Below, in pieces: positions 10,147 through 53,081 of a stretch of 64,000 nt of DNA; within the stretch, counting starts at the first letter, position 1, and each line of letters starts with the position of its first letter. The position numbers and the translations under genes were made by a program. Source of the stretch: Desulfatiglandales bacterium (GTDB lineage: Bacteria > Desulfobacterota > DSM-4660 > Desulfatiglandales > Desulfatiglandaceae); contig OY762721.1 in the NCBI GenBank assembly GCA_963666345.1, positions 1,920,001 through 1,984,000 on the forward strand, given 5' to 3'. The notes below the pieces were generated by a model that had not been told where the DNA came from, did not search any database, and saw nothing but the letters and a program-made list of their open reading frames with translations.

Positions 10147-10189
10147 CCGACTTACCGATTTCCGGTCAAACCTGAAATCGGCAAGTCGG
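10147..10189. repeat. REP-like palindrome P1 at the 3' end of the RAYT gene
   Basis: CCGACTTACCGATTTCCGGTCAAACCTGAAATCGGCAAGTCGG, an imperfect hairpin. Confidence 0.85.
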
Positions 10190-10192
10190 TTC

Positions 10193-11134
10193 TCATACCT
10201 GCTGCTTCAAAATATTGTAGACTGTTTTGGGAGATATTTTCAGGCGTTCTGCGACTTCACAACGCTTGAATCCCCTGGCTATCAACTGCTCGATAAGAAA
10301 CTTTAACGCCTGCCGGGACCCAGGTCTGCGTTTCCCATACTGGGTCAATGTATCATCGGTTCCCTGCTCCAGCGCTTCCATATTCAATATATCCATTCCG
10401 TCGATTTTGGCTACCGTCTTTGCGGTTGTCATCTTCCCAAAAATTTTCGGAAAAACCTTGATCAATTTCTTCCTGAAATCTTCTACGCCGCTTTCTTGCG
10501 TTTTTGGGTAATCAATATGCAATTTAGCTGCCTTTTCAAGCAGGTTACGATATTTGTACCTGGCGACTTGAAGATCGCTGGAAAACATTTTCAGTATGAA
10601 TTCGGCATTTACGAAAGATTTTTTCCCCGGTTCGTCCATAAATAACCGGACCGACGACCATCGATACTCTTTGGGGTCGCCAACGATTTCCGCTTTTACC
10701 GGATTTAGATGAATATAGGTAGAAGCGGTCATCAGGTATGCTTCGTCAAGACACACCGCCTGACGGTAAGGCCCTCCGAACAAGTGCCCTCGCCTTTCAT
10801 ATTTCCTGTTGAATCTCATCGCATATCGGGAAAACAGATCCCTCATGGCGTCCTGGAGGTTTCCGTGATTGGGCCGCAACAGGAGGTGGATATGATTTCT
10901 CATGAGACAAAATGAATAGATCTCGTAATCATGTTTTTGCACCGAATTTTTGAGAAATTTGAGCATACAGAGGAAATCGTCGTCTTCAACAAAACAGGGA
11001 TCCTTGCCGGCAGCACGTTGAGTGATATGCGAAACAAGGTTGCCTTGAGTGAGTTTATTTCGCGCGCGGAAAAAGCGCTTGACCTTATGCCCGTCAACAA
11101 GGTTGATTGAGTCCACGCAGCAGCTCCTCTGCAA
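10193..11134 (-). mobile_element. REP-associated tyrosine transposase (RAYT; IS200-like Y1 HUH) with C-terminal HTH
   Basis: SHITQR, FCLMRNHIHLL (HUH), RGHLF, YIHLNPVKA, EYRWSS; HTH tail EVAERLKISPKTVYNIL; flanked by palindromes. The true start may be slightly downstream. Confidence 0.9.
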
Positions 11135-11213: not shown

Positions 11214-11246
11214 TTACCGATTTCAGGTCAAACCTGAAATCGGTAA
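11214..11246. repeat. REP-like palindrome P2 upstream of the RAYT gene
   Basis: Perfect 15-bp stem TTACCGATTTCAGGT-caa-ACCTGAAATCGGTAA. Confidence 0.9.
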
Positions 11247-13740: not shown

Positions 13741-13775
13741 CTTACCGATTTTAGGTTTGACCGGAAATCGGTAAG
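13741..13775. repeat. REP-like palindrome P3
   Basis: CTTACCGATTTTAGGTTTGACCGGAAATCGGTAAG, the reverse complement of the P1 core with 2 mismatches. Confidence 0.85.
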
Positions 13776-15232: not shown

Positions 15233-15268
15233 CTTACCGAAAATGGCTCAAGGCCGAAATCGGTAAAG
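15233..15268. repeat. Degenerate REP-like palindrome P4
   Basis: CTTACCGA...GAAATCGGTAA arms conserved, centre diverged. Confidence 0.6.
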
Positions 15269-35419: not shown

Positions 35420-36680
35420 CTAATACTTTTCAAGTCTTACCTGGTCTTTAATTCTCTTTACATGGCCGCGGTCCAGGCCTTTTACTTCGCATCCAAGTTC
35501 AAAAAACCTTTTTATTTTCTCGTCATTGAGGATGCCGGAGCAGTAGATGATGGCCACCGGATTGCCCACCATTTCGACGATTTCATCAGGTGTCAGTTTC
35601 AGGTATTCCTGGTGTCTGACTGCCAGCACTACCGCATCCGCCCCTTTCAGTGTATCCGTCAGATTCGTGTGTATGCGCAGTCCTGTAAGGTTTTCCTAGT
35701 TTCGGAAAAAACGCGCCCATGAATGGCCGGGTGCGGGATAGGTCTCCTGTTTCTCAAACTCCCACCAGTGTTTTACATAGGGGTCATGAACGGATACCTC
35801 ACCCCCCATCTCGGTCAGTTTTCTCACTATCATCTCAGAGCCGCTGTAGCGGGTATCACCCACGTCCTCCCTGTAGGACACACCGAGGACCGCGATGTTT
35901 GATGCCGCAACTATCTTTCCCATGTTACGCAGCGCGTCACGCACCAGCTGGACGACATGAAGGGAGCGGGTATCGTTTATGTCGATGGCAAGGGGGGTAA
36001 TCTTGAAGATATCGTCGTCAAAGCCCATGAGCGAATTGTATGCCCATACGCCAAGCCCCCCGTCCTTGGGAAGGCAGTATCCACCGATTCCGGGACCGGG
36101 GAAAATAATGTTTGAATGGGTGGGTCGGATCTTTATGGCGTCTATGACCTTTATAAGGTCCACCCCATTTCTCTCCGAGAAAAGGCTCCATTCATTTAGA
36201 AAGGAAAGGATTGTGGCCCGATATGAATTTTCCACGATCTTGCATGTTTCACTTTCTATGGGCCGGTCAAGAACCGTTAAAGGAAATTTCTCGACATTAA
36301 TCACATTTGAAAGAAACCTTGTGACACGGCTTTTTGCCTCATCATTAATGCCTGAGCATACGCGCCAGAAATCGCGAATGGAAGCGACATAGTTTTTACC
36401 GGGCATCACTCTTTCAAATGAATGGGTAAGAAGGGGCTCGGAGCCGTTCAGGCCCCTTTTTTCAAAGGCTTTTTTATAACCAGGTAGGCGATATATTCGG
36501 TTGTCCTAGGAGGCACGGTCGTCTCAATGAGCACCAGACAATCAGGTCTTTCTTATCTTATCCCCTATTATCTGGAGGCTTTGTTCAAGAGCCTCGATAT
36601 CAGCATGGCCTTTTCTGACATCTCCCACGGTTTCCTTGTGGTAGTCACACTGCACATCCACCGCTACAATGTCCGCAATA
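35420..36680 (-). pseudogene. Truncated, disrupted second copy of the NDP-sugar dehydrogenase
   Basis: Homologous to 38782-40473; in-frame TAG at 35696-35698, frameshifts near 36470-36560, N-terminal part missing. Confidence 0.9.
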
Positions 36681-37688: not shown

Positions 37689-38669
37689 TCATTCCGGCGA
37701 TGACGTAATCGCATTGGGGTCGTTAGCTTTCATCTCCATTTCACGCTTCTGTTTCTCATGAAGCGCTTGCAATTGACCTCTCGTTAATCCCGGTTCATCA
37801 CCTGATCCAGGAACCACTATCTCATCCATGTTTTGATTTGCTGCTTCAAAATCCCGCTGCTGCTGTTCATGAAGCGCATTGAGCTGGCCTCTAGTTAGGG
37901 CTGGTTGGTCTCCTGATGCTGGTATCGCTATCTCATCCAGGTCACTAGGCTGCTTCTCAATTTCACGCTTTTGTTTCTCATGAAGTGCTTGCAGTTGACC
38001 TCTCGTTAATCCCGGTTCATCACCTGATCCAGGAACCACTATCTCATCCATGTTTTGATTTGCTACTTTAAAATCTCGCTGCTGCTGTTCATGAAGCGCA
38101 TTGAGCTGGCCTCTAGTTAGGGCTGGTTGGTCTCCCGATGCTAATATAACTAGCTCATTCGGATCATTAGCCTGCATCTTTATTTCACGTTTTTGCTTCT
38201 CATGAAGTGCTTTAATTTCTTGATCAGTGAGGCTCACACCATCTAAATCTTCTTCTGAATCTATTATAAAATTATTTTTACCAGGAGCCTTGCCGCCAAA
38301 ATTAAGTATTTCGAAAGTGCTATTGAACTCGTCTTTGATAACTGCACAATTTTTTATTCCGGTTCTTTTTATGATTTTTCTAACAGCTTCAAAAAGAGGG
38401 ACTTCATCCACTTTTATTGTGATTCGCTCTTTTTCAAATTCCTTATCTAAAATGATTTGATAACCCGTTTTACTATATATATCCTCAAAAATTTGTTTTA
38501 GGACCTTATTTTTAATATCTAATGACAGAACAGGCTCTTCAGTGCCTTTAGCTGATCCCCAGCATGAATCAGAATCTAAACTAACTGATATCATCGTTCC
38601 AAGACAATAAAAAAACAAAACAACGAAAAGTCTATTTCTTATACCGTATTTCATATAGCTTTTTACCAC
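37689..38669 (-). CDS. Exported protein with STN-like N-domain and 37-aa tandem repeats
   Basis: LSLDIKNKVLKQIFEDIYSKTGYQI...ITIKVDEVPLFEAVRKI (STN/N0-like); ~4.5 repeats of LTRGQL.ALHE.Q.R. Confidence 0.75.
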   Translation of the reverse strand: MVKSYMKYGIRNRLFVVLFFYCLGTMISVSLDSDSCWGSAKGTEEPVLSLDIKNKVLKQIFEDIYSKTGYQIILDKEFEKERITIKVDEVPLFEAVRKIIKRTGIKNCAVIKDEFNSTFEILNFGGKAPGKNNFIIDSEEDLDGVSLTDQEIKALHEKQKREIKMQANDPNELVILASGDQPALTRGQLNALHEQQQRDFKVANQNMDEIVVPGSGDEPGLTRGQLQALHEKQKREIEKQPSDLDEIAIPASGDQPALTRGQLNALHEQQQRDFEAANQNMDEIVVPGSGDEPGLTRGQLQALHEKQKREMEMKANDPNAITSSPE

Positions 38670-38781: not shown

Positions 38782-40473
38782 TTATAAGGCACTCTCATTA
38801 TTCAATACCTGATCCTTAATCCTTTTAACATGCCCCCTGCCAAGCCCTTTTACCTCGCAACCCAACTCAAAATAACGTTTAATGGCTTCATCATTCAAAA
38901 TTCCGAAGCAGTCAATTATTGAGATAGGATTACCGGCCATTTCAACGACCTTATCAGGAGTCAAGCTTAGATAATCCTTGTGCCTGACAGCAAGCACAAC
39001 CGCATCGGCACCTTTAAGCACATCTGCCATGTTTTTATGGACAACAATTTTAGAAAGCTTCTCCTGACCCCTGAAAAACCTGGCCCATGACTTTTGCGGG
39101 GCAGGATATGTATCCTGTTTTTCAAGTTCCCACCAATGCTTGACATAAGGGTCGTGTACTACCACCTCACCGCCCATCTCGGTCAGTTTTCTTACTATCA
39201 TCTCAGAGCCACTGTAACGCGTATCACCCACGTCCTCCCTGTAGGAAACGCCCAGAACCGTTATGTTTGATGCCGCAACTATCTTTCCCATGTTACGCAG
39301 CGCGTCACGCACCAGCTGGACGACATGAAGGGAGCGGGTATCGTTTATGTCGATGGCAAGGGGGGTAATCTTGAAGATATCGTCGTCAAAGCCCATGAGC
39401 GAATTGTATGCCCATACGCCAAGCCCCCCGTCCTTGGGAAGGCAGTATCCACCGATTCCGGGACCGGGGAAAATAATGTTTGAATGGGTGGGTCGGATCT
39501 TTATGGCGTCTATGACCTTTATAAGGTCCACCCCATTTCTCTCCGAGAAAAGGCTCCATTCATTTAGAAAGGAAAGGATTGTGGCCCGATATGAATTTTC
39601 CACGATCTTGCATGTTTCACTTTCTATGGGCCGGTCAAGAACCGTTAAAGGAAATTTCTCGACATTAATCACATTTGAAAGAAACCTTGTGACACGGCTT
39701 TTTGCCTCATCATTAATGCCTGAGCATACGCGCCAGAAATCGCGAATGGAAGCGACATAGTTTTTACCGGGCATCACTCTTTCAAATGAATGGGCAAGAA
39801 GGGGCTTGGAGCCGTTCAGCCCCCTTTTTTCAAATGCCTTTTTTATAATCGGATAGGCGATATACTCGGTCGTGCCCGGTGGCACGGTCGTCTCGATGAG
39901 CACCAGACAATCAGGCCTTATCTTGTCCCCAATTATCTGGAGGCTTTCTTCAAGAGCCTCGATATCCGCATGGCCTTTTCGGACATCCCCGAGGGTCTCC
40001 TTGTGGTAGTCGCACTGCACATCCACCACCACAATGTCAGCAAGGCATAAGGCATCATATGAAAAGGAAGCTGTAAGGGTCTTTTTCTCCTTTACGCACC
40101 GTTTGATCAAGGGGGCGACCTCAGGGTCTTCGGCCTCAACAGGTGCCACACCCTTATTCAGATAGGGTATCTTCCAGTATGAACGGATTGAAGGCCTCTG
40201 CATGCCGATTACCGAATAGATGGAATTACCTGTTTCAGGGTCAACAGAGTCGGCCACAACCCCTGCCATAACGGAACCGACAAACCCAACGCCCATGACG
40301 ACAACGATCTCGCGACCCTTCTCTTTTTCCTGTTTTACAAGCTGTCTCAGGCGTTTGTTTTCATTTTCATAATCCGCCTCTGTCGGAAGGGGGAAGACCT
40401 CGCCGTTCGGAGAGGGGGACACGGGATTATCCGTGTTGTTGGAGGGGTTGGTTGTATTGGGGTCTTTAGTCAT
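38782..40473 (-). CDS. UDP-glucose/GDP-mannose family nucleotide-sugar dehydrogenase
   Basis: VVMGVGFVG, ETTVPPGTT, ERVMPG, KIVENSYR, PGPGIGGYCLPKD, LGVSYREDVGDTRYS. Confidence 0.93.
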   Translation of the reverse strand: MTKDPNTTNPSNNTDNPVSPSPNGEVFPLPTEADYENENKRLRQLVKQEKEKGREIVVVMGVGFVGSVMAGVVADSVDPETGNSIYSVIGMQRPSIRSYWKIPYLNKGVAPVEAEDPEVAPLIKRCVKEKKTLTASFSYDALCLADIVVVDVQCDYHKETLGDVRKGHADIEALEESLQIIGDKIRPDCLVLIETTVPPGTTEYIAYPIIKKAFEKRGLNGSKPLLAHSFERVMPGKNYVASIRDFWRVCSGINDEAKSRVTRFLSNVINVEKFPLTVLDRPIESETCKIVENSYRATILSFLNEWSLFSERNGVDLIKVIDAIKIRPTHSNIIFPGPGIGGYCLPKDGGLGVWAYNSLMGFDDDIFKITPLAIDINDTRSLHVVQLVRDALRNMGKIVAASNITVLGVSYREDVGDTRYSGSEMIVRKLTEMGGEVVVHDPYVKHWWELEKQDTYPAPQKSWARFFRGQEKLSKIVVHKNMADVLKGADAVVLAVRHKDYLSLTPDKVVEMAGNPISIIDCFGILNDEAIKRYFELGCEVKGLGRGHVKRIKDQVLNNESAL

Positions 40474-40550
40474 TAATGGGTTCCTTTCTGATTAGGTTTA
40501 ACGGCCCACTTGTATTGTTTAAAAACTATAAAAGATAAAACAAATTTTAT

Positions 40551-40885
40551 TTAGCCGCCCGTGCGCTTCGCTTACTTGATTAACGGGACAAAGAAGGATG
40601 AAAAGATTTTTGCTCTGCCGACACTGGCAGAGCAAAAGCTTCATTTGCTTCGCAAAAGGTAAACAGCGGTATCAGTTTCAGGAATTGGGGCCTGCAGTTG
40701 AGAAGCCTTTGATTCAATTTTGGACCTCTCGAAGCTGGTTCCCTAATAACTAATAACAGTGTCCTTGTTTTCTTTGCCGCCCGTTCGTTTCACTCACTTG
40801 ATTGACGGGACAAAAAAGGATGAAAAAATATTTGCTCTGCCGATGCTGGCAGAGCAAAAGCTCCAATTTTACTTCGCAAAAGTTA
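40551..40885. repeat. Hairpin element copies 1-2 (type A)
   Basis: 40551-40660 and 40776-40885: CCGCCCGT...CTTGA...GGATG...TTTGCTCTGCC-loop-GGCAGAGCAAAAGCT...CTTCGCAAAAG. Confidence 0.92.
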
Positions 40886-40972
40886 AAGTCGGATTTTCAT
40901 TTAAGCACTTGGGAAAAGTCAAGTACTGCTACCCCAGGGAAAGCTTCCAATGCTTGCGCAGTAAAGTACATT

Positions 40973-41356
40973 TCAAATATTATCATTGCCCCTTTCGAGA
41001 ACCAGACGGCGAATAACGGCCTTTTCGCCCTTGAAGTTTACCAGAATCCCAAGGTGCATGCCTGTGGACCGCAGGTAGTTGAGGAGCTGCGCCTGGTGCG
41101 CCTTGGTCAGTTCATCCACCGCTTTCAGTTCCAGAATGACCTGGTTTTCAACTATCAAATCGGCAAAGTATTCGCCTACGATAGTCCCTTTGTAATTAAC
41201 ACTTATAGGTACCTGGGATTCAGCTTTGAGTCCGAGGTTTTGAAGTTCGAGCAGGAGGGCATTTTCGTAGACCTTTTCAAGGAAGCCTTCACCCAGTATG
41301 CGGTGGACCTCAAAGATAGCGCCGTTGATCTTGTAGGTAAGTTCTCTTGAATCCAT
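40973..41356 (-). CDS. GxxExxY protein (PD-(D/E)XK nuclease-like fold)
   Basis: EVHRILGEGFLEKVYENAL, ADLIVENQVILELKAV, AQLLNYL...GILVNF. Confidence 0.95.
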   Translation of the reverse strand: MDSRELTYKINGAIFEVHRILGEGFLEKVYENALLLELQNLGLKAESQVPISVNYKGTIVGEYFADLIVENQVILELKAVDELTKAHQAQLLNYLRSTGMHLGILVNFKGEKAVIRRLVLERGNDNI

Positions 41357-41419
41357 TATTATGGAATGTTCAGCGGCCCGTTATTATTGATTAAAAAGTT
41401 ATAAAAGACAAAAGACTGT

Positions 41420-41500
41420 TTAGCCGCCCGTTCACTTCGTTCACTTGATTAACGGGACAAGGCAGGATGTTTTTCCTCGGGCGATGCTCCCCGAGGAAAA
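41420..41500. repeat. Hairpin element copy 3 (type B stem)
   Basis: Same 5' half as type A; stem TTTTCCTCGGG-cgatgctc-CCCGAGGAAAA. Confidence 0.9.
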
Positions 41501-41684
41501 GAGCCCAAGAGCAGGGCATCTTGGCAGATGAGCGGCTAGTAGAATAACCTTTTGGATGTTTCTTGTGCCAAATCCAGGCAGTGCCCCAGTTAAATACGCT
41601 TCGCTGTCCATGCGGAATTCTACCGGGCAGGCATGACGCGCTGTAAGAAACCAGGGGCATCTATTCTTGGTTGGCGGGGCATTG

Positions 41685-41939
41685 TTATTTATGGTAATGC
41701 TTTGTTATAGAAATTATTTCAATTTTATCTTCAGGCAGGCAAATAAAGATGGCTCTATATTTCTTATCCAAACGGAATGAATAAATATGCCGGTGTTTGG
41801 GTTCTAACAATTCAGTATTTAATGAAGGATGAGATGGATCATTCTCAAAAAGTTTTTTAGCCTTTTCCCATTTTTTATTAAGAGCATGTTTTTGAAGATA
41901 TTCCTTGATATCGTCTCTAAGTGGTAAAATGGAAGGCAT
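41685..41939 (-). CDS. RelE-superfamily toxin
   Basis: LFENDPSHPSLNTELL...YSFRLDKKYRAIF...HYH. Confidence 0.8.
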   Translation of the reverse strand: MPSILPLRDDIKEYLQKHALNKKWEKAKKLFENDPSHPSLNTELLEPKHRHIYSFRLDKKYRAIFICLPEDKIEIISITKHYHK

Positions 41940-41945
41940 TTTGAT

Positions 41946-42209
41946 TTATCGATTAATAGATGATTTTTTTAAACCTTCTTCCAGATCTTTTAAGAAACCT
42001 TCTTCATACAAATCTGTTGCCGCAAACTCAGATATAATCGATTCAACTTTATCATTTTTAAAAGACTTTAATTCAATTGGTTTTCTCTCAAGTCTCCTTA
42101 GCAGCTTTTTTCGCTCTTCATCTGTGAGATTGTCGACGATTTCATAGAGTGTATCCATAGGTATTTCTATTTTCTTTGTTATTGTTTCTTTAAGAGTAAT
42201 TTGAGGCAT
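41946..42209 (-). CDS. Putative antitoxin
   Basis: 87 aa ORF with GGAGG RBS directly upstream of the toxin. Confidence 0.75.
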   Translation of the reverse strand: MPQITLKETITKKIEIPMDTLYEIVDNLTDEERKKLLRRLERKPIELKSFKNDKVESIISEFAATDLYEEGFLKDLEEGLKKSSINR

Positions 42210-42430
42210 ATTGCACCTCCCTAAAATGGGGATTTTAAAAAGACAATACCTTAGAGATTATCATTTATTAATCTAAGTGTCAAAATCCCAAGGAAAAATA
42301 TCGTAACTCTCTTTAATAATTTGTAGTAGCTAAGATATGATCTGACACATACCCTTTCTCGCCTGTCACGCTTTTTTCGTGTTTCCCGTTTCATTATAAC
42401 CAATAACCGATAACCTTGCTCTTGTTTCTT

Positions 42431-42765
42431 TGCCGCCCGTTCGAATTGCTCGCTTGACAAATCAGGATAAAAACGGATGTTTTTTTACTCTGCCGATGCT
42501 GGCAGAGTAAAAGCTCCAATTTTGCTTCGCAAAAGGTGAATGTGGCTTTTGTTTTCAGAAGTTGAGATCTGAAGATCAAGTGCCTTCTATTCCTCACAGG
42601 CACTGCAGAGAACAAGGACGAAAAACATGTGATTTCTCTGACAGTCTTTCCCTTGGAACCTTGCCCCCTGGGACCCTTGAACCCTGCTTTTTTAACCGCC
42701 CGCTTCGCTTGACAAAGAAGGATAAAGACAGGATGTTTTTTTGCTCTGCCGATGCCGGCAGAGCA
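42431..42765. repeat. Hairpin element copies 4-5 (type A)
   Basis: 42431-42537 complete; 42694-42765 ends right after the stem. Confidence 0.92.
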
Positions 42766-42843
42766 CACGGCCATCTCTGCGCAGCATAGACGCCTGGGGA
42801 AAGAATCCTATATGATATAGGGTCAAATTTGCTCCTGAACCAT

Positions 42844-43245
42844 CTAAAGATCATGCTCCGATAGTTGTACCAATCCCGGGATAAACTTGAAATGTTTGTC
42901 CTTTGAATAAATTTTGTATCCGTGCTGAAAAGCAACTGAAGCAATCCATATATCGTTTGTGGGAATAGGGGTTCCAGCTTCCCTCAAATTATGCAATATT
43001 GAAGCATAAAAATCAGCACTAACCTCATCAATGAAGTGAACGACTACTCTTGGAGAATCAAGAAAAACATTAAGCTCTTCCCTGTTTTTGGTTTCATGGC
43101 GACCGCCTTTAAAACCTGAAAAAAGCTCCCCGATGCTAATGACGGAAAAACCTATCAGATCAATTTTTCTCAACGTATCGACAACATTCACTTCACCCTT
43201 CATGGCGAGTGAGTATATATTCGTGTCGATCAGAACTTTTTTCAT
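42844..43245 (-). CDS. vapC: VapC family PIN-domain toxin
   Basis: LIDTNIY, IGEL, PIPTNDIWIA, SKDKHF. Confidence 0.93.
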   Translation of the reverse strand: MKKVLIDTNIYSLAMKGEVNVVDTLRKIDLIGFSVISIGELFSGFKGGRHETKNREELNVFLDSPRVVVHFIDEVSADFYASILHNLREAGTPIPTNDIWIASVAFQHGYKIYSKDKHFKFIPGLVQLSEHDL

Positions 43246-43502
43246 TTCCAGAGCTCCTGGTCAACTCGCCGCTCTTGGCTAATCTTCGCATGGATTTTTT
43301 CAAATTCATCATTGCTCCAACTTCCAAATAATTCATCTAGGTCATTATATTCACGCGTATATCTCTTTTCCTTTTTGAGTCCAAGGCCTTCTTTGATTAT
43401 TTCAAGGGTCAGCTGATTAACACTCTTACCTTTTTCAGCAGCAGTCTGCTTGAGCTTCTCAGCAACCTCGGCCTCAATGCCTCTAATGGTGACCGCCTTC
43501 AT
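43242..43502 (-). CDS. FitA-like RHH antitoxin
   Basis: AVTIRGIE..VAEKLK..A..GKSVNQ; 4-nt overlap with vapC; palindrome ATGATTGCA-ttt-TGTAATCAT at 43531-43551 upstream. Confidence 0.88.
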   Translation of the reverse strand: MKAVTIRGIEAEVAEKLKQTAAEKGKSVNQLTLEIIKEGLGLKKEKRYTREYNDLDELFGSWSNDEFEKIHAKISQERRVDQELWK

Positions 43503-43671
43503 AAGGGCCTCCTGATATTTCCATCAGTTTATGATTGCATTTTGTAATCATTTTATGACATCACATGGTTTTTGTCAAGTACTTCGGGAAACTCGAGGGG
43601 TTGATAAAAACATGAAAAGAATCTTTAACCGCCCAGTTGGTTTTGGAACCAACAAAGACCAAAAACATTGT

Positions 43672-43780
43672 TTAACCGCCCGTTCACTGCGTTCGCTTGA
43701 CAATACAGGATAAAGACAAGATGTTTTTTTGCTCTGCCGATGCTGGCAGAGCAAACGCTCCATTTTGCTACGCAAAAGGT
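43672..43780. repeat. Hairpin element copy 6 (type A)
   Basis: Full-length match to the consensus. Confidence 0.92.
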
Positions 43781-43894
43781 GAAGGTTGGTTTTCATTTAA
43801 CCACCAATTATTTTATTGGCTGTAGGGACAATAAAATAATAAAGATCTTCCGTGCCCTTAAATTTTTAGATAGTGAGGGAGTGCCTCTGGGCAA

Positions 43895-44191
43895 TTATTT
43901 CTTTTTGAGTTCCCTTAGCTGTTCACCGAATAGTTGGTAAATATCTTTGCGATGGCCTACATAGTGAATCTGTAAGACCTTCTCGTCTTCCAGTATTTTG
44001 TAAATGATTCTATATCGTTTTGCACGCAGGGAAAGATAGCCGGAAAGTTCTTTTTCAAGGAATTTGCCTGAATAGGGCTTTTCCTGCATCTGTTCTATTT
44101 TAGACTTTATAACCGGTTTTAAGTGGGGATGTAGTTTTTTGATCTGATTACGAGAGGTTTCAGAGTAAAGCAACCTGAACTTCCGGGCCAT
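43895..44191 (-). CDS. RelE/ParE family toxin
   Basis: KPYSGKFLEKELSGYLSLRAKRYRIIY...VGHRKDIY. Confidence 0.9.
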   Translation of the reverse strand: MARKFRLLYSETSRNQIKKLHPHLKPVIKSKIEQMQEKPYSGKFLEKELSGYLSLRAKRYRIIYKILEDEKVLQIHYVGHRKDIYQLFGEQLRELKKK

Positions 44192-44460
44192 TACTCCGCC
44201 CATACATCTTTATGCGTGTAGGCTTTACCGGCCTTGAAATCTTTCTCGGATGCATCCAGGGCCTTAAGAATGCCCGAATCGGAAAGGATCTCGATTGTCT
44301 CTAGTAGCCCGACGTAACGGTCCGGTGTTAACATAACACCAACGGCTACCCCGTTTTTCGTCACCGTAATAGTAGAGTCCTCATCCGTCATATCCTTGAT
44401 GATATCAAGAAAATTCTTTTTTACAGTTGTTACCGGTATAATTTTTTGAATATCATCCAT
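44191..44460 (-). CDS. Phd/YefM family antitoxin
   Basis: IPVTTVKKNF...ITVTKNGVAVGVM...LLETIEILSD. Confidence 0.9.
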   Translation of the reverse strand: MDDIQKIIPVTTVKKNFLDIIKDMTDEDSTITVTKNGVAVGVMLTPDRYVGLLETIEILSDSGILKALDASEKDFKAGKAYTHKDVWAE

Positions 44461-44604
44461 TTAGAAATTTCCCCTATGAATTATAATGACCATAATAATT
44501 TCAAGTTCTTATAAAGTCAATATGGAAGGGCATTGAGAATATTAGGAAATCAGGTCTAATTTTTGGTTCGATCGGATATCAGAAAACAGAAGAACAAATT
44601 TTAA

Positions 44605-44872
44605 TTAACCGCCCGTTTCGCTTGACAACACAGGATAAGGACAGGATGTTTTTTTACTCTGCCGACCCTGGCAGAGCAAAAGCTCCATTTGCTTCGCAAA
44701 GGTTGAGGTTGGGTTTTCATTTAAGCGCCAGGGGAAATTCAATCATCAATTACTTCATCAGCTGCTGAAGCAACAAAAAGAAAAGAAGAATTGTTGTTTA
44801 ACCGCCCGTTCGCGTTGCTCACTTGATTAACGGGACGGGGCAGGATGTTTTTCCTCGGGCGATGTTCCCCCG
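44605..44872. repeat. Hairpin element copies 7 (A) and 8 (B, truncated)
   Basis: 44605-44703 and 44798-44872. Confidence 0.9.
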
Positions 44873-45000
44873 GTCTCCACTTATGCATGGCACTAAAAAT
44901 GGGTAATTTACAGTTCTTACATTGGCAGGGAATACAATTATTTCATGGAAAAGGTTTTATTATGGTGCAATTTGCCTCGGGCGCCAAATTCTTCAGTCAC

Positions 45001-46482
45001 CTAATCACCCAGTAGCAGGAGTAGGATGGACGACAGGACGCCGTTATTCAAAGCCACTCTTTTGACACCCATGCCAATGCACTGTGAGCCCCACTTTTCA
45101 CTGTCATTAAATTCGCTGTTCACAAAAATAAATGTTTGGCCATCTTCACTCAGAATCCCTGCACCGCTTTCTTCATCTGGAGTGCCCGGATCAAATGTGA
45201 TGGTGATAGTGCCGTCGGATGAAATCGAATAAATGCCGCTCTCAGTGCCACTACCGGAAGTAAATGTTGTTGAAAATGTGTTGTTGCCTTCAAGATCGTC
45301 CCCAATCTGCCTGTTCAATTCATCCTCTTTCGTACAGCTGCCGGTAAAAGTCCCGTCTGACATAAAAGTGAACGTCTCTTTCATGATCAAAACCTTGTCA
45401 TTGACACCCCATGAACCCACAGCACCACCATGAAATGCGCTCTCAAATTCATGAATTTCATATACCGTGTCATCGGGAAAATACTGCGAGAAACCACTCC
45501 CCTTTTTGACACCCATGCCAATGCACTGTGAGCCCCACTTTTCACTGTCATTAAATTCGCTGTTCACAAAAATAAATGTTTGGCCATCTTCACTCAGAAT
45601 CCCTGCACCGCTTTCTTCATCTGGAGTGCCCGGATCAAATGTGATGGTGATAGTGCCGTCGGATGAAATCGAATAAATGCCGCTCTCAGTGCCACTACCG
45701 GAAGTAAATGTTGTTGAAAATGTGTTGTTGCCTTCAAGATCGTCCCCAATCTGCCTGTTCAATTCATCCTCTTTCGTACAGCTGCCGGTAAAAGTCCCGT
45801 CTGACATAAAAGTGAACGTCTCTTTCATGATCAAAACCTTGTCATTGACACCCCATGAACCCACAGCACCACCATGAAATGCGCTCTCAAATTCATGAAT
45901 TTCATATACCGTGTCATCGGGAAAATACTGCGAGAAACCACTCCCCTTTTTGACACCCATACCAATGCACAGTGAGCCCCACTTTTCACTGTCACTAAAT
46001 TCGCTGTTCACAAAAATAAATGTTTGGCCATCTTCACTCAGAATCCCTGCACCGCTTTCTTCATCTGGAGTGCCCGGATCAAATGTGATGGTGATAGTGC
46101 CGTCGGATGAAATCGAATAAATGCCGCTCTCAGTGCCACTACCGGAAGTAAATGTTGTTGAAAATGTGTTGTTGCCTTCAGAATCATCCCCAATCTGCCT
46201 ATTCAATTCATCCTCTTTCGTACAGCTGCCGGTAAAAGTCCCGTCTGACATAAAAGTGAACGTCTCTTTCATGATCAAAACCTGGTCATTGGCACCCCAT
46301 GCACCCTCAGCACCCCCATGAAATCCGCTCTCAAATTCATGAATTTCATATACCGTGTCGTCGGGAAAATACCTGCTGAATGCCAATGAGTATGAGGCTG
46401 GAATTTCAAATCCAATAATAAGCAGCAACGCAAAGCTCAGTATAAAAAGTCTTTTCAATAGAAAGTTTTTAGTATTATCCAA
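45001..46482 (-). CDS. Secreted acidic protein of three ~148-aa tandem repeats with a hydrophobic C-terminal tail
   Basis: Signal peptide; 444-bp DNA period (45233/45677/46121); ends VLSSILLLLLGD. Confidence 0.88.
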   Translation of the reverse strand: MDNTKNFLLKRLFILSFALLLIIGFEIPASYSLAFSRYFPDDTVYEIHEFESGFHGGAEGAWGANDQVLIMKETFTFMSDGTFTGSCTKEDELNRQIGDDSEGNNTFSTTFTSGSGTESGIYSISSDGTITITFDPGTPDEESGAGILSEDGQTFIFVNSEFSDSEKWGSLCIGMGVKKGSGFSQYFPDDTVYEIHEFESAFHGGAVGSWGVNDKVLIMKETFTFMSDGTFTGSCTKEDELNRQIGDDLEGNNTFSTTFTSGSGTESGIYSISSDGTITITFDPGTPDEESGAGILSEDGQTFIFVNSEFNDSEKWGSQCIGMGVKKGSGFSQYFPDDTVYEIHEFESAFHGGAVGSWGVNDKVLIMKETFTFMSDGTFTGSCTKEDELNRQIGDDLEGNNTFSTTFTSGSGTESGIYSISSDGTITITFDPGTPDEESGAGILSEDGQTFIFVNSEFNDSEKWGSQCIGMGVKRVALNNGVLSSILLLLLGD

Positions 46483-46662
46483 CCTTAGCTCCTTTCTTTC
46501 ATATTGTATTTAATCCAACAGAATAATCACAATCCATTTTTTTTATAACTGATAGGTCAAATAAATTATTGAGGAACATTATGAAATAATTTTATCCAAT
46601 ATTTAATCATAGCAAGAAATTCGATATTAGAACTTAGCTTTTCAATTTTCATATTTTTTAGA

Positions 46663-47652
46663 TCAAGTATTATAACCTTCCGGATGTTTTTTGTGCCATC
46701 CCCAGGCGGTTTCAATAATAGTCTCAAGGTCTGCAAACCGGGGCTTCCACCCCAGCTCCTTAATTGCTTTATCTCCCGAACCAATAAGCGTAGCAGGGTC
46801 CCCTGGTCTTCGGCTTACGACTTTTGACGGAATCATTTCACCCGTAACATTTTGGCTTACATCGATTATTTCCTTAACCGTGTAACCAACACCATTCCCC
46901 AAGTTGTACTTTCCTCCGGAAAGCCCATTTAAAAGCCCTTCCAATGCAAGCAGATGTGCTGAGGCCAGGTCATATATATGGATGTAGTCGCGGACGCATG
47001 TGCCGTCTCTTGTGGGGTAGTCATCGCCGAAAACATTGACCTGCTTACGTTGCCCCAAGGCCGTTTTGAGGACCAATGGAATAATATGAGTCTCGGGGTC
47101 GTGATCTTCTCCTATTTCACCGTCAGGGTCTGCTCCTGCTGCATTAAAATAGCGCAGAGAAATGTAATTTAATCCGTAGGCTTCTGAAAAATCTTTCAAA
47201 ACAGCCTCTACCATGAGCTTGCTTCGTCCATAAGGGTTAACAGGCACGCACTGGTGGGTTTCAAAGATTGGGTTATCTAACGGCTCACCATATACCGCTG
47301 CCGTAGATGAAAAAATGAAATTCTTCACACCATGATCAATCATGCCTTTAAGAAGTGTGACTGTAGAGCCCACATTATTTCTATAGTACAGAACCGGATC
47401 TGTGACTGATTCTCCAACATTGATATAGGCAGCGAAGTGCATAACAGCACTGATGCGGTTATCGGTAAATAATTGAGAAAGGAGTTCTTTGTCATCCATA
47501 TTCCCCTTAACCAAGCTGCCCCATTTCACGGCCTGAGCGTGACCCCGGCTTAGATCGTCAAGCACAATAGGCAAATAGCCGCTTTCTGACAGCTTCTTGC
47601 ACATGTGAGAGCCGATATAGCCGGCCCCGCCTACAACCAGGATTTTTTTCAT
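46663..47652 (-). CDS. galE: UDP-glucose 4-epimerase
   Basis: GGAGYIGSH, HFAA...VGES, NPYGRSK, LRYFNAAGAD, DGTCVRDYIH. Confidence 0.96.
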   Translation of the reverse strand: MKKILVVGGAGYIGSHMCKKLSESGYLPIVLDDLSRGHAQAVKWGSLVKGNMDDKELLSQLFTDNRISAVMHFAAYINVGESVTDPVLYYRNNVGSTVTLLKGMIDHGVKNFIFSSTAAVYGEPLDNPIFETHQCVPVNPYGRSKLMVEAVLKDFSEAYGLNYISLRYFNAAGADPDGEIGEDHDPETHIIPLVLKTALGQRKQVNVFGDDYPTRDGTCVRDYIHIYDLASAHLLALEGLLNGLSGGKYNLGNGVGYTVKEIIDVSQNVTGEMIPSKVVSRRPGDPATLIGSGDKAIKELGWKPRFADLETIIETAWGWHKKHPEGYNT

Positions 47653-47748
47653 ACCTTATAATTCGTTTTTTAATTAAGCATCCTAGACAGCAACTTCACC
47701 ATCTCGATTTCCAAACAAGTCTATAAATTAAAGATCATATGTAGGAAT

Positions 47749-48969
47749 TCAGCTGCGCCTCCAGAATTTGACTCCCTTTACCAGTTCATTATATCTGTCA
47801 GGGTCCTGCGTTTTTACCTTGAAGACGAATTCTTTTATAAAGGCAAGAAATATGGCTGTGAAAAACCCCACTACAGTGGAAAGGATCACTATCATCTTTT
47901 TTTTAGGAGCAGACCTTGTGTCAGGAGGAACTGCTTTATCAAGCACCTGGATTGTGTTCATATCCTTGGCCTCTTCGATTTTGGCCATCTCGTATTGACT
48001 GGTAAGGAGTTCGAATACCTGCTCCTGGATCTTTGCCTCACGCATCAGCCTTGCCAGCCTCATGCCGAGGTCAGGAAGCTCCTTAAAGGGGATATAGAAG
48101 TTGTCGGCATTTTTTTCAGGGTTTCCTGATTCTATCTTTGCAAGTTGTTTCCGGAGCTCCTCTATCTTTGATTTGAGCATTATAGCTTCATTCTGTTTTT
48201 CAGTACCGAACTTCTTTAAGACTTCAAACTCGGTCTGAGCGGCGATGATCTCTCCCTTTAATGTGGCTGCACCTTCAATGGAGGCCTTTGCCTGCTCATT
48301 AATGGATACAAGATTGTATTTCTCCTGAAACGCCTGGAGACCGGTTTCTGCATTTATTAAATCCTTTTTGGCCTTTTCAAGCCTTTCTTCAAGAAACACC
48401 CTCTTACGCTGGCCTTCAGTAACAAGCACGGTCCTGTTTATCTGATCCAGAGCCTCAACATAGATATTGGCCATGGCTGCAGCCCTTTTCGGGTCCTCTT
48501 CCTCTACTGACACACTTATGATCCCTGTGTCCTTTGAAACATTTATTTTAGTGATTTCTGAAAGCTTATTGTAGACAGGGGAAATGTATTCCGCTTCCCA
48601 CAGTTTTTTGAGATCGAATTTATTGATCAGGACATCGGCCACTGAGCGGCTTTTCATGATCCCGACATAAACATCCGAGCTTGACTGTCCCCCCCCCAAC
48701 AGCCCTGATGCAAGCCCTCCGAAGGCACCTCCCGCCTGAGAAAGGAAAGAGGAAATTCCAGATTTTTGCTGTTGTGGCGGAAGGATTCGAGCAGTTGCAG
48801 TAAATTTCTCAGGCAGATAGAGGCTGTAGCAGACAGAGAAGACTATCGCGATCAAGGTAATCCAGAAGATGAGCCATTTCCTTTTCAGGAGGACGAGTAA
48901 AAGGTCAAGGAGGTTTATTTCGTCTTCCATGCACTCAGGCGGGATGTTATTTGGATCTGTGGGGTTCAT
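47749..48969 (-). CDS. Wzz/GumC-like chain-length determinant (no kinase domain)
   Basis: EDEINLLDL, two TM helices, coiled coil, IQVLDKAVPP..RSAPK. Confidence 0.9.
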   Translation of the reverse strand: MNPTDPNNIPPECMEDEINLLDLLLVLLKRKWLIFWITLIAIVFSVCYSLYLPEKFTATARILPPQQQKSGISSFLSQAGGAFGGLASGLLGGGQSSSDVYVGIMKSRSVADVLINKFDLKKLWEAEYISPVYNKLSEITKINVSKDTGIISVSVEEEDPKRAAAMANIYVEALDQINRTVLVTEGQRKRVFLEERLEKAKKDLINAETGLQAFQEKYNLVSINEQAKASIEGAATLKGEIIAAQTEFEVLKKFGTEKQNEAIMLKSKIEELRKQLAKIESGNPEKNADNFYIPFKELPDLGMRLARLMREAKIQEQVFELLTSQYEMAKIEEAKDMNTIQVLDKAVPPDTRSAPKKKMIVILSTVVGFFTAIFLAFIKEFVFKVKTQDPDRYNELVKGVKFWRRS

Positions 48970-49047
48970 AACCGGACCTCATGATTGGATTTTTTGTTTT
49001 ATTTTTAAACGCCTGTGAGCATTGAGAGAAGAAGAATTCTTGTTTTT

Positions 49048-49678
49048 TTAACCGCCCGTTCACTGCGTTTACTTGATTAAAGGGACAAAAGCAGGATGTT
49101 TTTTTACTCTGCCGATGTTGGCAGAGCAAAAGCTTCATTTGCTTCGCAAAAGGTGAGCAGTAGTTTCAATTTCAGTAGTTGAGGTCTAAAGTCCAAATGC
49201 CTTTTGTTTCTCACAGAGACCACAGAGGGCACAGAGAAAAAACATGCTGTTTCTTCGACAGCGGTTCACTTGGCCCCTTGAAACTGGGAACCCGCTGCGA
49301 AGCTGTGGGACTGAGCGGAGCGTAAGCGGAGCAAAGAATCCTCGACCCCTGGAAACCTTGGACCCTGATTTCTTAACCGCCCGTTCACTGCGTTCACTTG
49401 ATTAGCTGGACAGGGCAGGATGGTTTTCCTCGGGCGATGCTCCCCTGGGGAAAGCTTTCAATGCTTGAGCATTATTTTATAGCGGTGTACATAAAACTTC
49501 TTCTGTAACGTTGATCAAACGATGGCAAAGCTTGAGGCGATGTGTTGATTAAACCGATAAAAGACAAAAGAGTGTTTGACCGCCCGCTTCGCTTGACAAA
49601 ACAGGATGGAAACGGATGTGACCTCTTTTTGCTCTGCCGATGCTGGCAGAGCAAAAGCTCCAATTCCTGCGTAAAGGT
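49048..49678. repeat. Hairpin element copies 9 (A), 10 (B), 11 (A)
   Basis: 49048-49154, 49373-49455, 49576-49678. Confidence 0.92.
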
Positions 49679-49716
49679 GTAAGGTCAACTTTCTTTTCGA
49701 GTCTTACTGGAACGGG

Positions 49717-50022
49717 TTAGGTTTTTTGATTTTTTGAAAGAATGCGGAATGTTTCTTCATATATGATTCTTCTAGGGCCTATGGCGACAATTTCTATCTG
49801 CCGCCTTTTTGGGCGGATACGGTATATGATTCGATATCTTTTAACGCGATAACTTCTCAGACCTTTAAGCTCATCCTTGAGGGCCTTTCCACCGTATGGA
49901 TTCCCGATTATGTTTTTCAAACCGGATCGGATGTGCAATTTGATCATTGGATGAAGCTTCTTTAAAACAGAAGCAATATCGTCCGGGACCCTCGGGACAA
50001 ATTTACCTTCGTCCGTGATCAT
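49717..50022 (-). CDS. RelE/ParE family toxin
   Basis: NPYGGKALKDELKGLRSYRVKRYRIIY...IGPRRIIY. Confidence 0.88.
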   Translation of the reverse strand: MITDEGKFVPRVPDDIASVLKKLHPMIKLHIRSGLKNIIGNPYGGKALKDELKGLRSYRVKRYRIIYRIRPKRRQIEIVAIGPRRIIYEETFRILSKNQKT

Positions 50023-50285
50023 GATTCGGGCAACAGTTCCTCCAGGCCGTATAGGGCCGCTCTGCCTTTTTTCAGTGATTCCAGACCACTTTCAATTTCC
50101 TCCATAAAATTGGAGTCGAATCGAATCTTGATGGTCTCCCGCCAGCTTTCAAATTCATCCGGGCTCACCATTACAGCAACAGGTCGGCCGTTTTTTGTAA
50201 TGATTACCTCTTCATCGGTCTGCTTTACGGAATCGACCAATGCGCTCAGTTTCATCTTGGCTTCCGACACGGACATAGTATTCAT
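50019..50285 (-). CDS. Phd/YefM family antitoxin
   Basis: MSVSEAKMKLS...VIITKNGRPVAVM; operator-like palindrome TTGAC-N10-GTCAA at 50306-50325. Confidence 0.92.
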   Translation of the reverse strand: MNTMSVSEAKMKLSALVDSVKQTDEEVIITKNGRPVAVMVSPDEFESWRETIKIRFDSNFMEEIESGLESLKKGRAALYGLEELLPES

Positions 50286-50417
50286 AATATAGAACCTTAT
50301 ATAGGTTGACTTAAATTATAGTCAATATATAAGCTTTTTTAAAATGACTGTCAAGAATACCGAGGCGAGTAACCGCCCTGTTGGTTCTGAAATCAGCACA
50401 GAAAAAAAGAATTTTTG

Positions 50418-50712
50418 TTAGCCGCCCGTTCACTGCGTTCACTTGACAAAACAGGATAAAAACGGATGAAAAGATTTTTACTCTGCCGACATGGCAGAGT
50501 AAAAGCTTCGTTTGCTTCGCAAAGGGTGGCTGGTTGTTCCTTTTCCAACTCCCAAAAAAAATCGATCACCATTCACCGGTTACTGGGATAACAAAAAAAA
50601 TAAAAGATCTTCTATGTGATTAGCTTCTTTCCCTTGGCTCCTCGACTCCTGGAACCCTTGGACCCTGTCTTATTAACCACCCGCTTCGCTGGCAAAACAA
50701 GATATAAACGAG
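50418..50712. repeat. Hairpin element copies 12 (A) and 13 (5' half only)
   Basis: 50418-50527 and 50673-50712. Confidence 0.88.
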
Positions 50713-50730
50713 TGGTTACACCCCATAATA

Positions 50731-51354
50731 TCACCTGGAGTTTGGAAGCATAAGGTGGCCCTTCTCCACCAGGTAGCCGAGTATTTTCATGGCCCCCTCC
50801 TGGGGAGTCAATTCTGCTGTCTTTATAACAAGCTCGGGATTAACAGGTGCCTCATAAGGGTCATCGATTCCGGTAAAGCCCTTTATCTCTCCTTTGCGTG
50901 CCTTCTTGTACAAACCCTTTGGGTCCCTCTTTTCACATACGTCAATAGGGGCATCTATAAATATTTCCATAAAAAACAGTCCGGCTTCATCATGTATCTT
51001 TCTTGCTATTTCACGGTCCTTTGCATATGGTGAAATGAAGCTGGTCATGGTTATGAAGCCTGCGTCTGCGAAAAGTTTAGCGACCTCTCCTATACGGCGT
51101 ATATTTTCCTCACGGTCTTCAGCTGAAAAACCCAGGTTCTTGTTCAGTCCATGTCTGACATTATCTCCGTCAAGGACATATGCAAGTCTGTCTCTTTGAA
51201 CAAGGGCATGCTCAAGGGTAAATGCCAGGGTGCTTTTGCCTGATGCACTAAGGCCAGTCATCCAGATAGTGCAGCCCCTTTGTTGGAGCAGATTCTCACG
51301 TAATTCACGGTTTACATGTCCCTCATGCCAAATGATATTATTCGCTATCTGCAT
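50731..51354 (-). CDS. cysC: Adenylyl-sulfate kinase
   Basis: IWMTGLSASGKST, LDGDNVRHGL, ENIRRIGEVA, RDPKGLY, FTGIDDPYE. Confidence 0.97.
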   Translation of the reverse strand: MQIANNIIWHEGHVNRELRENLLQQRGCTIWMTGLSASGKSTLAFTLEHALVQRDRLAYVLDGDNVRHGLNKNLGFSAEDREENIRRIGEVAKLFADAGFITMTSFISPYAKDREIARKIHDEAGLFFMEIFIDAPIDVCEKRDPKGLYKKARKGEIKGFTGIDDPYEAPVNPELVIKTAELTPQEGAMKILGYLVEKGHLMLPNSR

Positions 51355-51387
51355 TGATATTCACCTATTAAATTTTGCTAGAAAAGG

Positions 51388-51486
51388 TTTAACCTTTCGC
51401 TTTGCTTGACAAAACAGGATAAAAACGGATGTTTTTTACTCTGCCGACACTGGCATAGCAAAAGCTTCATTTGCTACTCAAAAGGT
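51388..51486. repeat. Hairpin element copy 14 (type A, degenerate)
   Basis: GCTTGACAAAACAGGATAAAAACGGATG...CTCTGCCGACACTGGCATAGCAAAAGCTT; abuts the stop codon of the upstream gene. Confidence 0.85.
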
Positions 51487-53081
51487 TACTGCAGGGAAGG
51501 ATATTTCTTGCCGCAGGCAGGGCAGGTCTTGTCTTTATTCAGGGTCTCCCCGCATTCGCATACCCAGCCTTTATGGGTTGCCGGATTTCCGACCACAAGG
51601 GCATGATCGGGTACGTCCCTTGTTACCACGGCACCTGCGCCGATAAGAGAGTAACTGCCGATTGTAACCCCGCACACTACCGTGCAGTTGGCACCAAGGG
51701 TTGCCCCCTTCTTTACAAGGGTAGGCCTTGCCTGATCCATTTTACTAATCTCAGCCCTCGGATTGTACACATTGGTAAACACCATGCTGGGCCCGCAGAA
51801 CACCCCGTCTTCAAGGGTAACGCCCTTATACACGGATACGTTATTCTGTATCTTGCACCTGTTTCCTATTACCGCTTCAGGGCCTATGACCACATTCTGC
51901 CCTATATTGCACTGTCTGCCGACGCATGAGCCTGAAAGAAGATGAGAAAAATGCCATATCTTTGTTCCATCACCTATCTTGCAGTCCTGGTCAATAATAG
52001 AAGAGGGGTGCGCATAAAAGCCTTTTTCATCTTTATCGGCTGCCTGAATTTTCGCCTCTCTGCCCGCAGCCTCCACTTCTATCCTTCTGCCTCCATCATC
52101 GAGCGACATTTGAGAGCGGTTGAGCACCCTCAGGACCCTGAGGCCCTCTATCCCGTCTGTTACAGGGATCTTCCCGTTTGTGATGCAATCGATAAAATGT
52201 TCACACTCAAGCCTTAATGGTTCCGCCTCCGCCATTTCAACCCTTTCAGGCATCCCCTTTTCAGGCACCGGAATATTTTTCTCCCAGTTTATCTTGTGCG
52301 GATAGAGAAGCAGTTTGTCCTTCCAGGGTTGGGTGTCGTCAAAAACCGCCATTTTTTTGTCCCCCACAACTACCAGTTTCTGCTCTTTAAAGGGGTGAAG
52401 CCAGGAGACAAATATGTGCGCCTTCAGGCCTGAGGGAAACTCAAGGTGCGTGGTGGTGACATCCGCGATCTTCTTGTGAAGGTAGTTTCCGCCTGTGGCT
52501 GAAACCGCGTCAGGCGTTTCTCCTGCAAGGGAAAGGATCATGGATATGTCATGGGGTGCAAAAGACCAGAGGATGTTTTCTTCCCGCCTGATCTTTCCCA
52601 GGTTAAGCCTGTTTGAATATATATAGTTGATCCGGCCAAGCTCGCCACCTGAAGCAAGCTCCTTGAGTCTTATAAAGGCTGGATGGTGCTGCAGCAGGTG
52701 CCCTACCATCAGGACAAGGCCCTTATCTTCGGCAATAGAGATAAGTTCTTCGGCCGCATTTTCATCAAGCACAAGCGGTTTTTCAACATACACATGCCTT
52801 CCAGCCAGAAGCGCCTCCCTTGCCAGGTTATAATGGGTCTCGGCAGGGGTGGCAATAACCACTCCTTTTATATCTTCCCTTGAGATCACTTCATTTAAGG
52901 CGATGCAGGTATCTATGTCAGGATAGTTTTTCCTGAACTGGGCCAGGGTCTCTTCGTTTCTGTCACAGATAAGCCTCAGGGAACCGAGTTGATAGTAATT
53001 TCTTACAAGATTTTTCCCCCAGTAGCCGCTTCCAATAACTGCGATGCCCGGTCTTTTTTTATCTGCCGTGCCTTTGTCCAA
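51486..53081 (-). CDS. Fused Gfo/Idh/MocA dehydrogenase (WbpB-like) and LbH N-acetyltransferase (WbpD-like)
   Basis: IGSGYWG, YVEKP, SFAPHD; then [37 protein letters not shown]. Confidence 0.9.

Follow-up and report, generated by a model that had tools for sequence, protein, structure and literature searches.

A hairpin with a covarying stem and a conserved loop start in a repeat that follows a clade of GxxExxY nuclease-fold proteins

Introduction

A hairpin at positions 41471-41500 (plus strand) of a 64-kb stretch of a Desulfatiglandales genome, hereafter the window, raises the question of why a stem should change in sequence whilst the loop that it carries is kept. The host genome is a single contig of 4.16 Mb, and the window includes dsrAB and a polysaccharide locus. 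The hairpin itself has an 11-bp stem and an 8-nt loop beginning CGA. The original prediction held that selection acts on a folded single-stranded DNA or RNA whose loop is read by a protein, with GxxExxY and RAYT as its guesses for that protein. Here, we ask to what larger structure the hairpin belongs, how its stem and loop have evolved in relatives, and which agent may act on it. Throughout, G000 is the genome containing the window, other G numbers are assemblies and L numbers are loci.

The hairpin within a compound repeat

The hairpin is one component of a larger repeat of 110-125 bp, here called the end element. It opens with a AACCGCCCG-type terminus and a variable small hairpin, continues through CTTGA or CTAGA into the arm units and then reaches the flagged hairpin, which is often followed by a third. 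Termini are of AACC/AGCC type, and the arm comprises two or three purine-rich units, each terminating in GA(C/T). The small hairpin, in the first arm unit, occurs in about 50 variants across all loci: one, which covaries, encloses a tandem TC/TC mismatch (GA/GA on the opposite strand) in its stem and has Watson-Crick pairing in 28/30 and 29/30 cases at its two free pairs, and the other forms are perfect palindromes of unrelated sequence.

Thirteen end elements occupy the window between 40550 and 51486, all on the strand opposite to the genes (plus) and all direct repeats relative to each other. The flagged hairpin, of type B, is subterminal in the element at 41419-41524, which has an AACC-type terminus, small hairpin, arm units and third hairpin; it begins about 65 nt upstream of the start of the GxxExxY gene (40973-41356, minus strand), pointing away from it. 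This gene, the only one of its kind in the genome, encodes 127 amino acids with a predicted PD-(D/E)XK fold and is our candidate for the enzyme. Its 3' end is abutted by the right half of a B-type element broken in the loop (about 40917-40962), and further B-type copies are found at 44797-44872 (broken 3 nt into the right stem) and 49372-49453 (stem damaged). Type A elements appear in a G-C form at 40550-40660, 40772-40893 (downstream of GxxExxY) and 43671-43779; in an A-T form at 42428-42537 (hairpin 42483-42512) and, with a 7-nt loop, at 50417-50527 (hairpin 50476-50504); and with an unpaired A.C at 44604-44704, 49047-49154 and, in damaged form, 51388-51486. The copy at 42691-42790 has a short form of the small hairpin, and that at 49575-49678 is identical to a related strain from 49600 onward, its left part differing there.

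Sequences and coordinates of both stem types were correctly predicted, including damaged type B hairpins near 44848 and 49424 and the A-T hairpins of type A, and the fold is real, the flagged 30-mer scoring z = -4.6 and -4.8 against shuffles on its two strands. A paired exchange of G-C for A-T does occur in type A (five G-C, two A-T), but three of the ten copies (44652, 49102, 51434) carry an unpaired A.C, so the window alone is weak evidence for the swap. The window contains 13 occurrences of the proposed loop core CGATGCT, where 5.95 would be expected, and only 6 of its 13 end elements have the core in exact form. T-runs 5' of the stem are indeed unlike a terminator, but they belong to the stem itself and pair with an A-run. 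A second pairing, CCCGTT/AACGGG, had also been suggested; as a family feature it fails, the CGGGA that it requires being present in only 17 of 58 distinct arms. Reading an arm TTGACA as a promoter was likewise abandoned, with one element match and 23 promoter-like sites against 19.2 expected.

Genome-wide, there are 28 copies of the end element, fragments included, of which 13 belong to one array. Twenty-four, 11 of which are not part of the window array, lie within 117 kb (G000 1960554-2077345; 2.8% of the genome) starting at the sole GxxExxY gene; end elements also occur singly between housekeeping genes. The clustered copies are also near the cumulative GC-skew minimum at about 2.1 Mb.

Three toxin-antitoxin units, all on the minus strand, are passengers between end elements in the window: a FitA-like/VapC unit (42844-43502), a Phd/ParE unit (43895-44460) and a Phd/ParE-like unit (49717-50285). 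Two small ORFs of 84 and 87 aa between elements at 41685-42209 have no family match, and their layout suggests a toxin-antitoxin pair. Further repeat remnants between elements (42553-42690, 49170-49360 and 50625-50670) include three-unit ACAGA arms and GAACCC-type arrays, and an inserted hairpin near 49290-49330 has very high contig depth in other samples. Other repetition in the window includes a 493-aa ORF at 45001-46482 with three near-identical 444-bp repeats and no Pfam/NCBIfam match, which contigs of runs X3-X5 do not cover; a 326-aa ORF with 111-bp periodicity (37689-38669); and a broken partial duplicate (35687-36678) of the nucleotide-sugar dehydrogenase gene at 38782-40473.

Covariation of the stem and conservation of the loop start

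Relatives were collected with a pattern of arm letters only, containing no stem or loop letters, which yielded 30 loci in 10 genome assemblies and 44 metagenome loci. Desulfobacteraceae or Deltaproteobacteria are the labels of most of the 10 assemblies; a single organism accounts for many of the loci, and L074 duplicates a G000 copy. A hairpin with at least 9 of 11 pairs follows 65 of the 106 distinct arm matches. In the 36 distinct stems, 95.7% of cells are paired, a figure that is partly circular because hairpins were chosen by pairing, and 110 two-sided changes were counted against 30 ± 6 in shuffles that ignore kinship among copies. The count falls to 15-32 when stem partners are slid, and 10 of the 11 pairs covary. 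Anchoring copies on the loop instead, without selecting for pairing, still gave at least 7 of 9 pairs in 32 of 45. Covariation in this wider set of relatives is strong.

Conservation of the loop is concentrated at its start. Over 51 distinct hairpins, positions 1-3 are C in 47, G in 49 and A in 50, and 48 have T or C at position 4; position 5 varies freely, every stem position has changed among relatives, and loop length stays at 7-8. A held-out family found later begins CGA in eight of nine new hairpins, giving 62 of 71 hairpins over 53 stems in total. The claim of different stems around one loop is therefore much stronger in relatives than in the window, with CGA and not CGATGCT as the conserved core. 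From the alignments we thus show a fold that covaries and a loop start that is conserved. Extension of the stem into the loop was considered and is not supported (55.6% paired), the loop having no internal pairing. Folding of the minus strand, suggested by the three A.C copies, was dropped on finding G.T pairs in relatives three times on the plus and four times on the minus strand.

Wider searches returned little. A looser pattern matched 23 of 401 genomes, most matches being hairpin-less and a reversed control pattern matching too, and only G000, G013 and family f37 were counted from it. BLAST with one whole element found matches in 8 of 209 genomes, since the stems diverge, and viral contigs held no element match and no confirmed GxxExxY relative. 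One copy (L041), with a different stem and the loop start AGA, lies in an assembly labelled Verrucomicrobia, through either transfer or mis-binning.

End type and the GxxExxY clade

GxxExxY corresponds to TIGR04256 and to PF13366 (PDDEXK_3), the function of which is listed as 'Unknown' in PMC3424549. Searches of the open literature for GxxExxY, PDDEXK_3 and combined terms found no description of the system. The window protein matches PF13366 at 142.7 bits, and a protein database search found many close homologues; GxxExxY is present in 115 of 209 genomes of this class. Its structure model (pLDDT 93) matches nucleases of the PD-(D/E)XK fold and D66, E76 and K78 are invariant in an alignment of 29 sequences: a confident model of such a nuclease, with the predicted catalytic D/E/K intact. 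Best in the fold search was a restriction endonuclease (Z 8.7, rmsd 2.5, 93 aligned), and Cas4 SSO0001 (Z 8.2, rmsd 3.1, 99 aligned) and Hjc (Z 7.0, rmsd 3.2, 86 aligned) were also matched. Cas4 and archaeal Hjc offer a precedent for the cutting of branched or single-stranded DNA with this fold, although restriction endonucleases match it as well or better; because no structural match stands out, the fold does not name the substrate.

Linkage between the gene and the end element recurs outside the window. Scanning 142 of the 158 ORFs near elements gave polysaccharide, toxin-antitoxin and housekeeping genes, two four-helix-bundle genes and two GxxExxY genes, with no Y1 transposase among the 142; a third element-adjacent GxxExxY, in L059, was recognised by reading the sequence. 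In L050, L059, L205 and the window an element begins 6-65 nt upstream of GxxExxY and points away from it; L050, L059 and the window also have a copy downstream of the gene's 3' end. Both elements flanking the window gene are direct, not inverted. L071 is a whole cassette, in which GxxExxY stands between two inverted elements with their termini outermost. A fifth, truncated GxxExxY (75% identity) has an element directly upstream of its start, and in L023 a gene-less element joins the hairpin end type to an ordinary three-unit arm.

Flanks of GxxExxY genes were then compared between a close set, comprising the top match in each of 29 genomes of the class (59-71% identity to the window protein; 55 usable flanks after three short ones were dropped), and a distant set of 20 matches picked from the list (43-51% identity). 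Read inward, 19 of the 55 close-clade flanks bear a CGA-first hairpin and 3 a reversed one; the loop is different in 13, and the remaining 20 lack a hairpin, so the hairpin is optional even in the close clade. CGA-first hairpins are found in 0 of 40 distant-clade flanks, and the 1061 control hairpins, drawn from the first 1.5 Mb of G000, include 5. The 19 CGA flanks, which set against the 3 reversed ones give an inward orientation, derive from about 9-10 insertion sites by eye, many rows sharing an organism or site. The type A stem itself is seen in close-clade flanks L122 and L124, and in L118 and L119 with the loop start CAA. A tree of 53 rows groups the window protein with the three element-linked ones in a single clade (100/99), nested within a 33-row clade (98/96) that contains all CGA hairpins, and two subclades of the 20 distant rows bear other arm words. 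Eight element-bearing assemblies (G009, G013, G060, G070, G076, G459, G534 and G580), all incomplete or fragmented, had no close-clade gene by this query. In these comparisons of flanks and tree, the end type is shown to follow the GxxExxY clade, which gives the original guess at GxxExxY a link at the level of clades.

GxxExxY cassettes that differ among five genomes (L134, L171, L172, L173 and L174), and that have three arm types between them, occupy a single orthologous junction between the stop of the upstream gene and the ribosome site of what, from its sequence, is probably an enoyl-CoA hydratase gene. The junction is a hot spot at which GxxExxY cassettes replace each other.

The loop as a point of breakage and insertion

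Broken copies provide a further view of the element. Of the 41 arm matches that lacked a scored hairpin, 12 were excluded: 5 chance matches, 6 intact hairpins with sub-threshold pairing or 7-nt loops, and 1 at a contig end. In the 29 broken elements, whose rows are not independent, 15 breaks fall right after the loop CGA/CAA, 5 after an arm GA and 8 elsewhere (by reading); the remaining one is the opposite side of a loop-CGA/CAA junction. In addition, mini-hairpins of 33-58 bp have inserted into at least five different stems, with three loop letters before and five after where scored, in a scoring anchored on CGA to which earlier positions are invisible. The same mini-hairpins enter other hairpin loops too, so the fixed position may be a preference of their own. 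The pattern suggests that the loop is exposed in DNA, and does not itself identify the cutting agent.

Families of 20-55 bp hairpins ending CAAG/CAGG are inserted in the loops or arms of other repeats, sometimes in tandem (L016, L021, L026, L028, L035, L043, L047, L063, L068, L072, L127 and L142; G000 1375371, 1455200, 1770656, 2043480 and 2606992). In L001 (8481-9594; G000 553481-554594), a ParE toxin-antitoxin pair lies between an arm-only copy and a copy cut after the loop CGA, and the elements there are on the same strand as the genes.

Toxin-antitoxin passengers and their reordering

The order of the passengers is not fixed. Contigs from three runs carry, in turn, the segments 43890-44529, 42865-43624 and 49600-50325, 725 other letters and the gene at 51492, and the reordered joints fall at or near element termini, save for the identity boundary at 50325, which lies in a promoter and not an element. 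The unit at 49600-50325 has 0-6 differences over 726 letters, and the neighbouring biosynthetic gene is about 6% different. Also present in these three runs is an organism whose multi-kb contigs from a housekeeping region each differ from G000 at 0-3 positions, at a depth similar in two runs and somewhat higher in the third; because these contigs so nearly match G000 at similar or higher depth, the reordered contigs probably derive from a near-identical strain. The reordering is known from assembled contigs, and ordinary recombination between repeats could also produce it.

Toxin-antitoxin genes were rejected as obligate parts of the element, since 0 of 19 homologous toxin-antitoxin loci elsewhere have such arms. 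Compared loci included no clean empty site (L168 and L169 hold unrelated sequence, L171-L174 other GxxExxY cassettes), and no target duplication was found at the examined sites. One X6 contig is without a 449-nt element-bearing stretch, and the end of its neighbouring gene differs too. A possible direct repeat in the tail has a mean match of 6.7/10 against 5.5 in shuffles, for a motif picked post hoc in copies that are kin.

Comparison with known systems

REP/REPIN elements with RAYT (TnpA-REP) Y1 transposases, as treated in PMC3337134 and PMC3733652, are one of the close systems for comparison. The end element resembles them in being extragenic palindromic DNA with inverted doublets (L059, L193, L201 and L202) and tandem clusters, in having a single small enzyme gene flanked by repeats, and in a repeat type specific to the enzyme lineage. 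Unlike RAYT, the linked gene encodes a PD-(D/E)XK nuclease of 127 aa and not an HUH/Y1 protein; unlike REP, the unit is compound, with arm words, up to three hairpins and a conserved signal in the loop. In 65 hairpins, with 12 nt searched on each side for a REP foot tag, GTAG or its complement was found 0 times, CGTC/GACG twice and CTCC/GGAG 10 times. A separate palindromic repeat family lies at 10152-10184, 11214-11246, 13742-13774 and 15234-15266; two of its copies flank a long RAYT-like Y1 gene (10193-11134), the other two are near MazF, YafQ and ParE toxin-antitoxin genes, and a second long Y1 gene is found at G000 2027538.

In integron attC arrays, direct repeats separate small, self-promoted toxin-antitoxin units. 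As in such arrays, the order of toxin-antitoxin units differs between close strains, but the end element has no R/L boxes, no single rod fold and no integrase nearby, and its copies stand alone between housekeeping genes or as inverted ends of a nuclease gene. Both attC boxes (RYYYAAC...GTTRRRY) are present in 0 of 6 elements, which fold as several hairpins and not as one rod. The genome does encode an integron integrase (TIGR02249, 472 bits; G000 1359039), 600 kb away and with attC-like sites of its own; this conventional integron (L094 7570-9981, about G000 1357570-1359981) is unrelated to the element. Like a Rho-independent terminator, the hairpin has a GC-rich stem with T/A runs, but its T-run lies on the 5' side and is paired to an A-run, such sites are not enriched, the loop start is conserved and copies are inverted around a gene. 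A MITE of a DDE transposon would have terminal inverted repeats and a target-site duplication; solo copies are without inverted termini, and the tail gives a weak hint of a direct repeat. The element is not a REP, an attC site or a terminator.

It fits a GxxExxY cassette end in its AACC/AGCC terminus, GA-bearing arm units and inversion around the gene (L071). Unlike ordinary cassette ends, it has a CGA-loop hairpin with a covarying stem lying between the arm and the gene, as well as another hairpin, variable in sequence, within its first unit, and it has spread mostly as solo ends in direct arrays.

Discussion

We give a probability of roughly 60% to a reading in which the hairpin forms the subterminal stem-loop at a DNA end belonging to a GxxExxY clade, whose nuclease likely binds this end and nicks the extruded loop beside CGA. 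The fold and the conserved loop start (covariation; 53 distinct stems) partly support the selection on a folded nucleic acid that had been proposed, and we infer that a protein reads the loop. Three other explanations compete with this. Were the hairpins inherited relics that a polymerase keeps perfect by switching template from one inverted arm to the other, covariation would be a mutational by-product and no reader of the loop would be needed. Template switching reportedly homogenises the arms of inverted repeats and inverts the spacers between them, and so could perfect stems without selection; the three close-clade loops in reverse orientation, the rarity of G.T pairs (3 of 396 cells) and the decay of many copies would all be in keeping with it. 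It leaves unexplained the retention of CGA at loop positions 1-3 while position 5 is free and all stem positions have changed, as well as the constant loop length of 7-8 and the 19:3 inward bias, and we regard it as unlikely. Action as RNA, whether as a stability, processing or attenuation signal in a polycistronic message or as an autoregulatory site, is very unlikely. Copies lie opposite to both neighbouring genes in 17 of 28 cases in G000 and 8 of 18 elsewhere (by rough ORF calls), and five type A hairpin readings pass a terminator-like scan, but terminator-like sites are not enriched (16 against 12.9 ± 4.1 in shuffles), the B hairpin is not flagged, and Rfam 15 gives 0 window matches at gathering score and no element match at E<=1 in 40400-51600. 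Moreover, 13 of the 28 G000 copies belong to one array. DNA is favoured over RNA because the two ends of a cassette are mirror images on opposite strands, copies occur in both orientations, there is no G.T bias to one strand (three plus, four minus), mini-hairpins insert in the loop at one position, and the triloops of the third hairpin are GNA in 9 of 23 cases on the minus strand against 1 of 23 on the plus, a motif much more stable in DNA than in RNA according to PMC13037366.

It is also improbable, in our view, that the hairpin is a DNA signal for another enzyme, with GxxExxY as cargo. The candidates would be a four-helix-bundle system, genes of which adjoin elements in L008 and L059; the mover of the CAAG/CAGG-ended mini-hairpins, which insert at the loop; a RAYT-like Y1 transposase or the integron integrase, the genome encoding both Y1 genes and a true integrase; and the absence of a close GxxExxY from several element-bearing assemblies would fit any of them. 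The end type nevertheless tracks the GxxExxY clade, although shared inheritance within a cassette would give the same pattern. For the RAYT, which had been the other guess at the loop's reader, the lack of Y1 genes among the 142 scanned neighbours and the window gene's own inverted repeats make the role unlikely. The integrase lies far from the elements amid ordinary attC-like sites, and of the six elements tested none has the pair of attC boxes or folds as a rod.

If the hairpin is indeed read by the clade's own nuclease, a mechanism can be proposed from the sequence patterns. GxxExxY would bind the arm at its repeated GA(C/T) words, and this candidate nuclease would nick the extruded hairpin next to the GA of the loop; host repair or recombination would then copy the end, or the end with its adjoining gene, to another end, leaving solo ends, inverted doublets and direct arrays as outcomes. 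In the host genome, solo ends have multiplied near the single GxxExxY gene, and the direct repeats between toxin-antitoxin units in the polysaccharide locus likely allow passengers to be reordered and exchanged. Binding, nicking and mobilisation are what we infer from the arrangement of the copies. A bolder version casts GxxExxY as a nickase of hairpin loops that moves its own ends under a clade-specific end code, and solo arrays as an integrase-free platform for capturing and shuffling toxin-antitoxin and other small genes in surface-polysaccharide loci; it is offered tentatively and is more doubtful than not.

REPIN-RAYT is a precedent for the broad notion of a selfish hairpin repeat served by its own enzyme, though not for the enzyme or the end architecture seen here. 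On correlative evidence, the end element provides a candidate substrate for a widespread nuclease-fold family. Natural variants indicate which letters matter, the stem being free and the loop CGA fixed, with a likely cut after the A, and distant clades with other ends supply a built-in control for specificity; with such variants and such a control available, GxxExxY function can be tested with oligonucleotides. Should GxxExxY move these ends, it would represent a mobile system whose enzyme class differs from those behind REPINs, integrons and MITEs, and one that may explain the accumulation of toxin-antitoxin genes in the polysaccharide loci of these bacteria.
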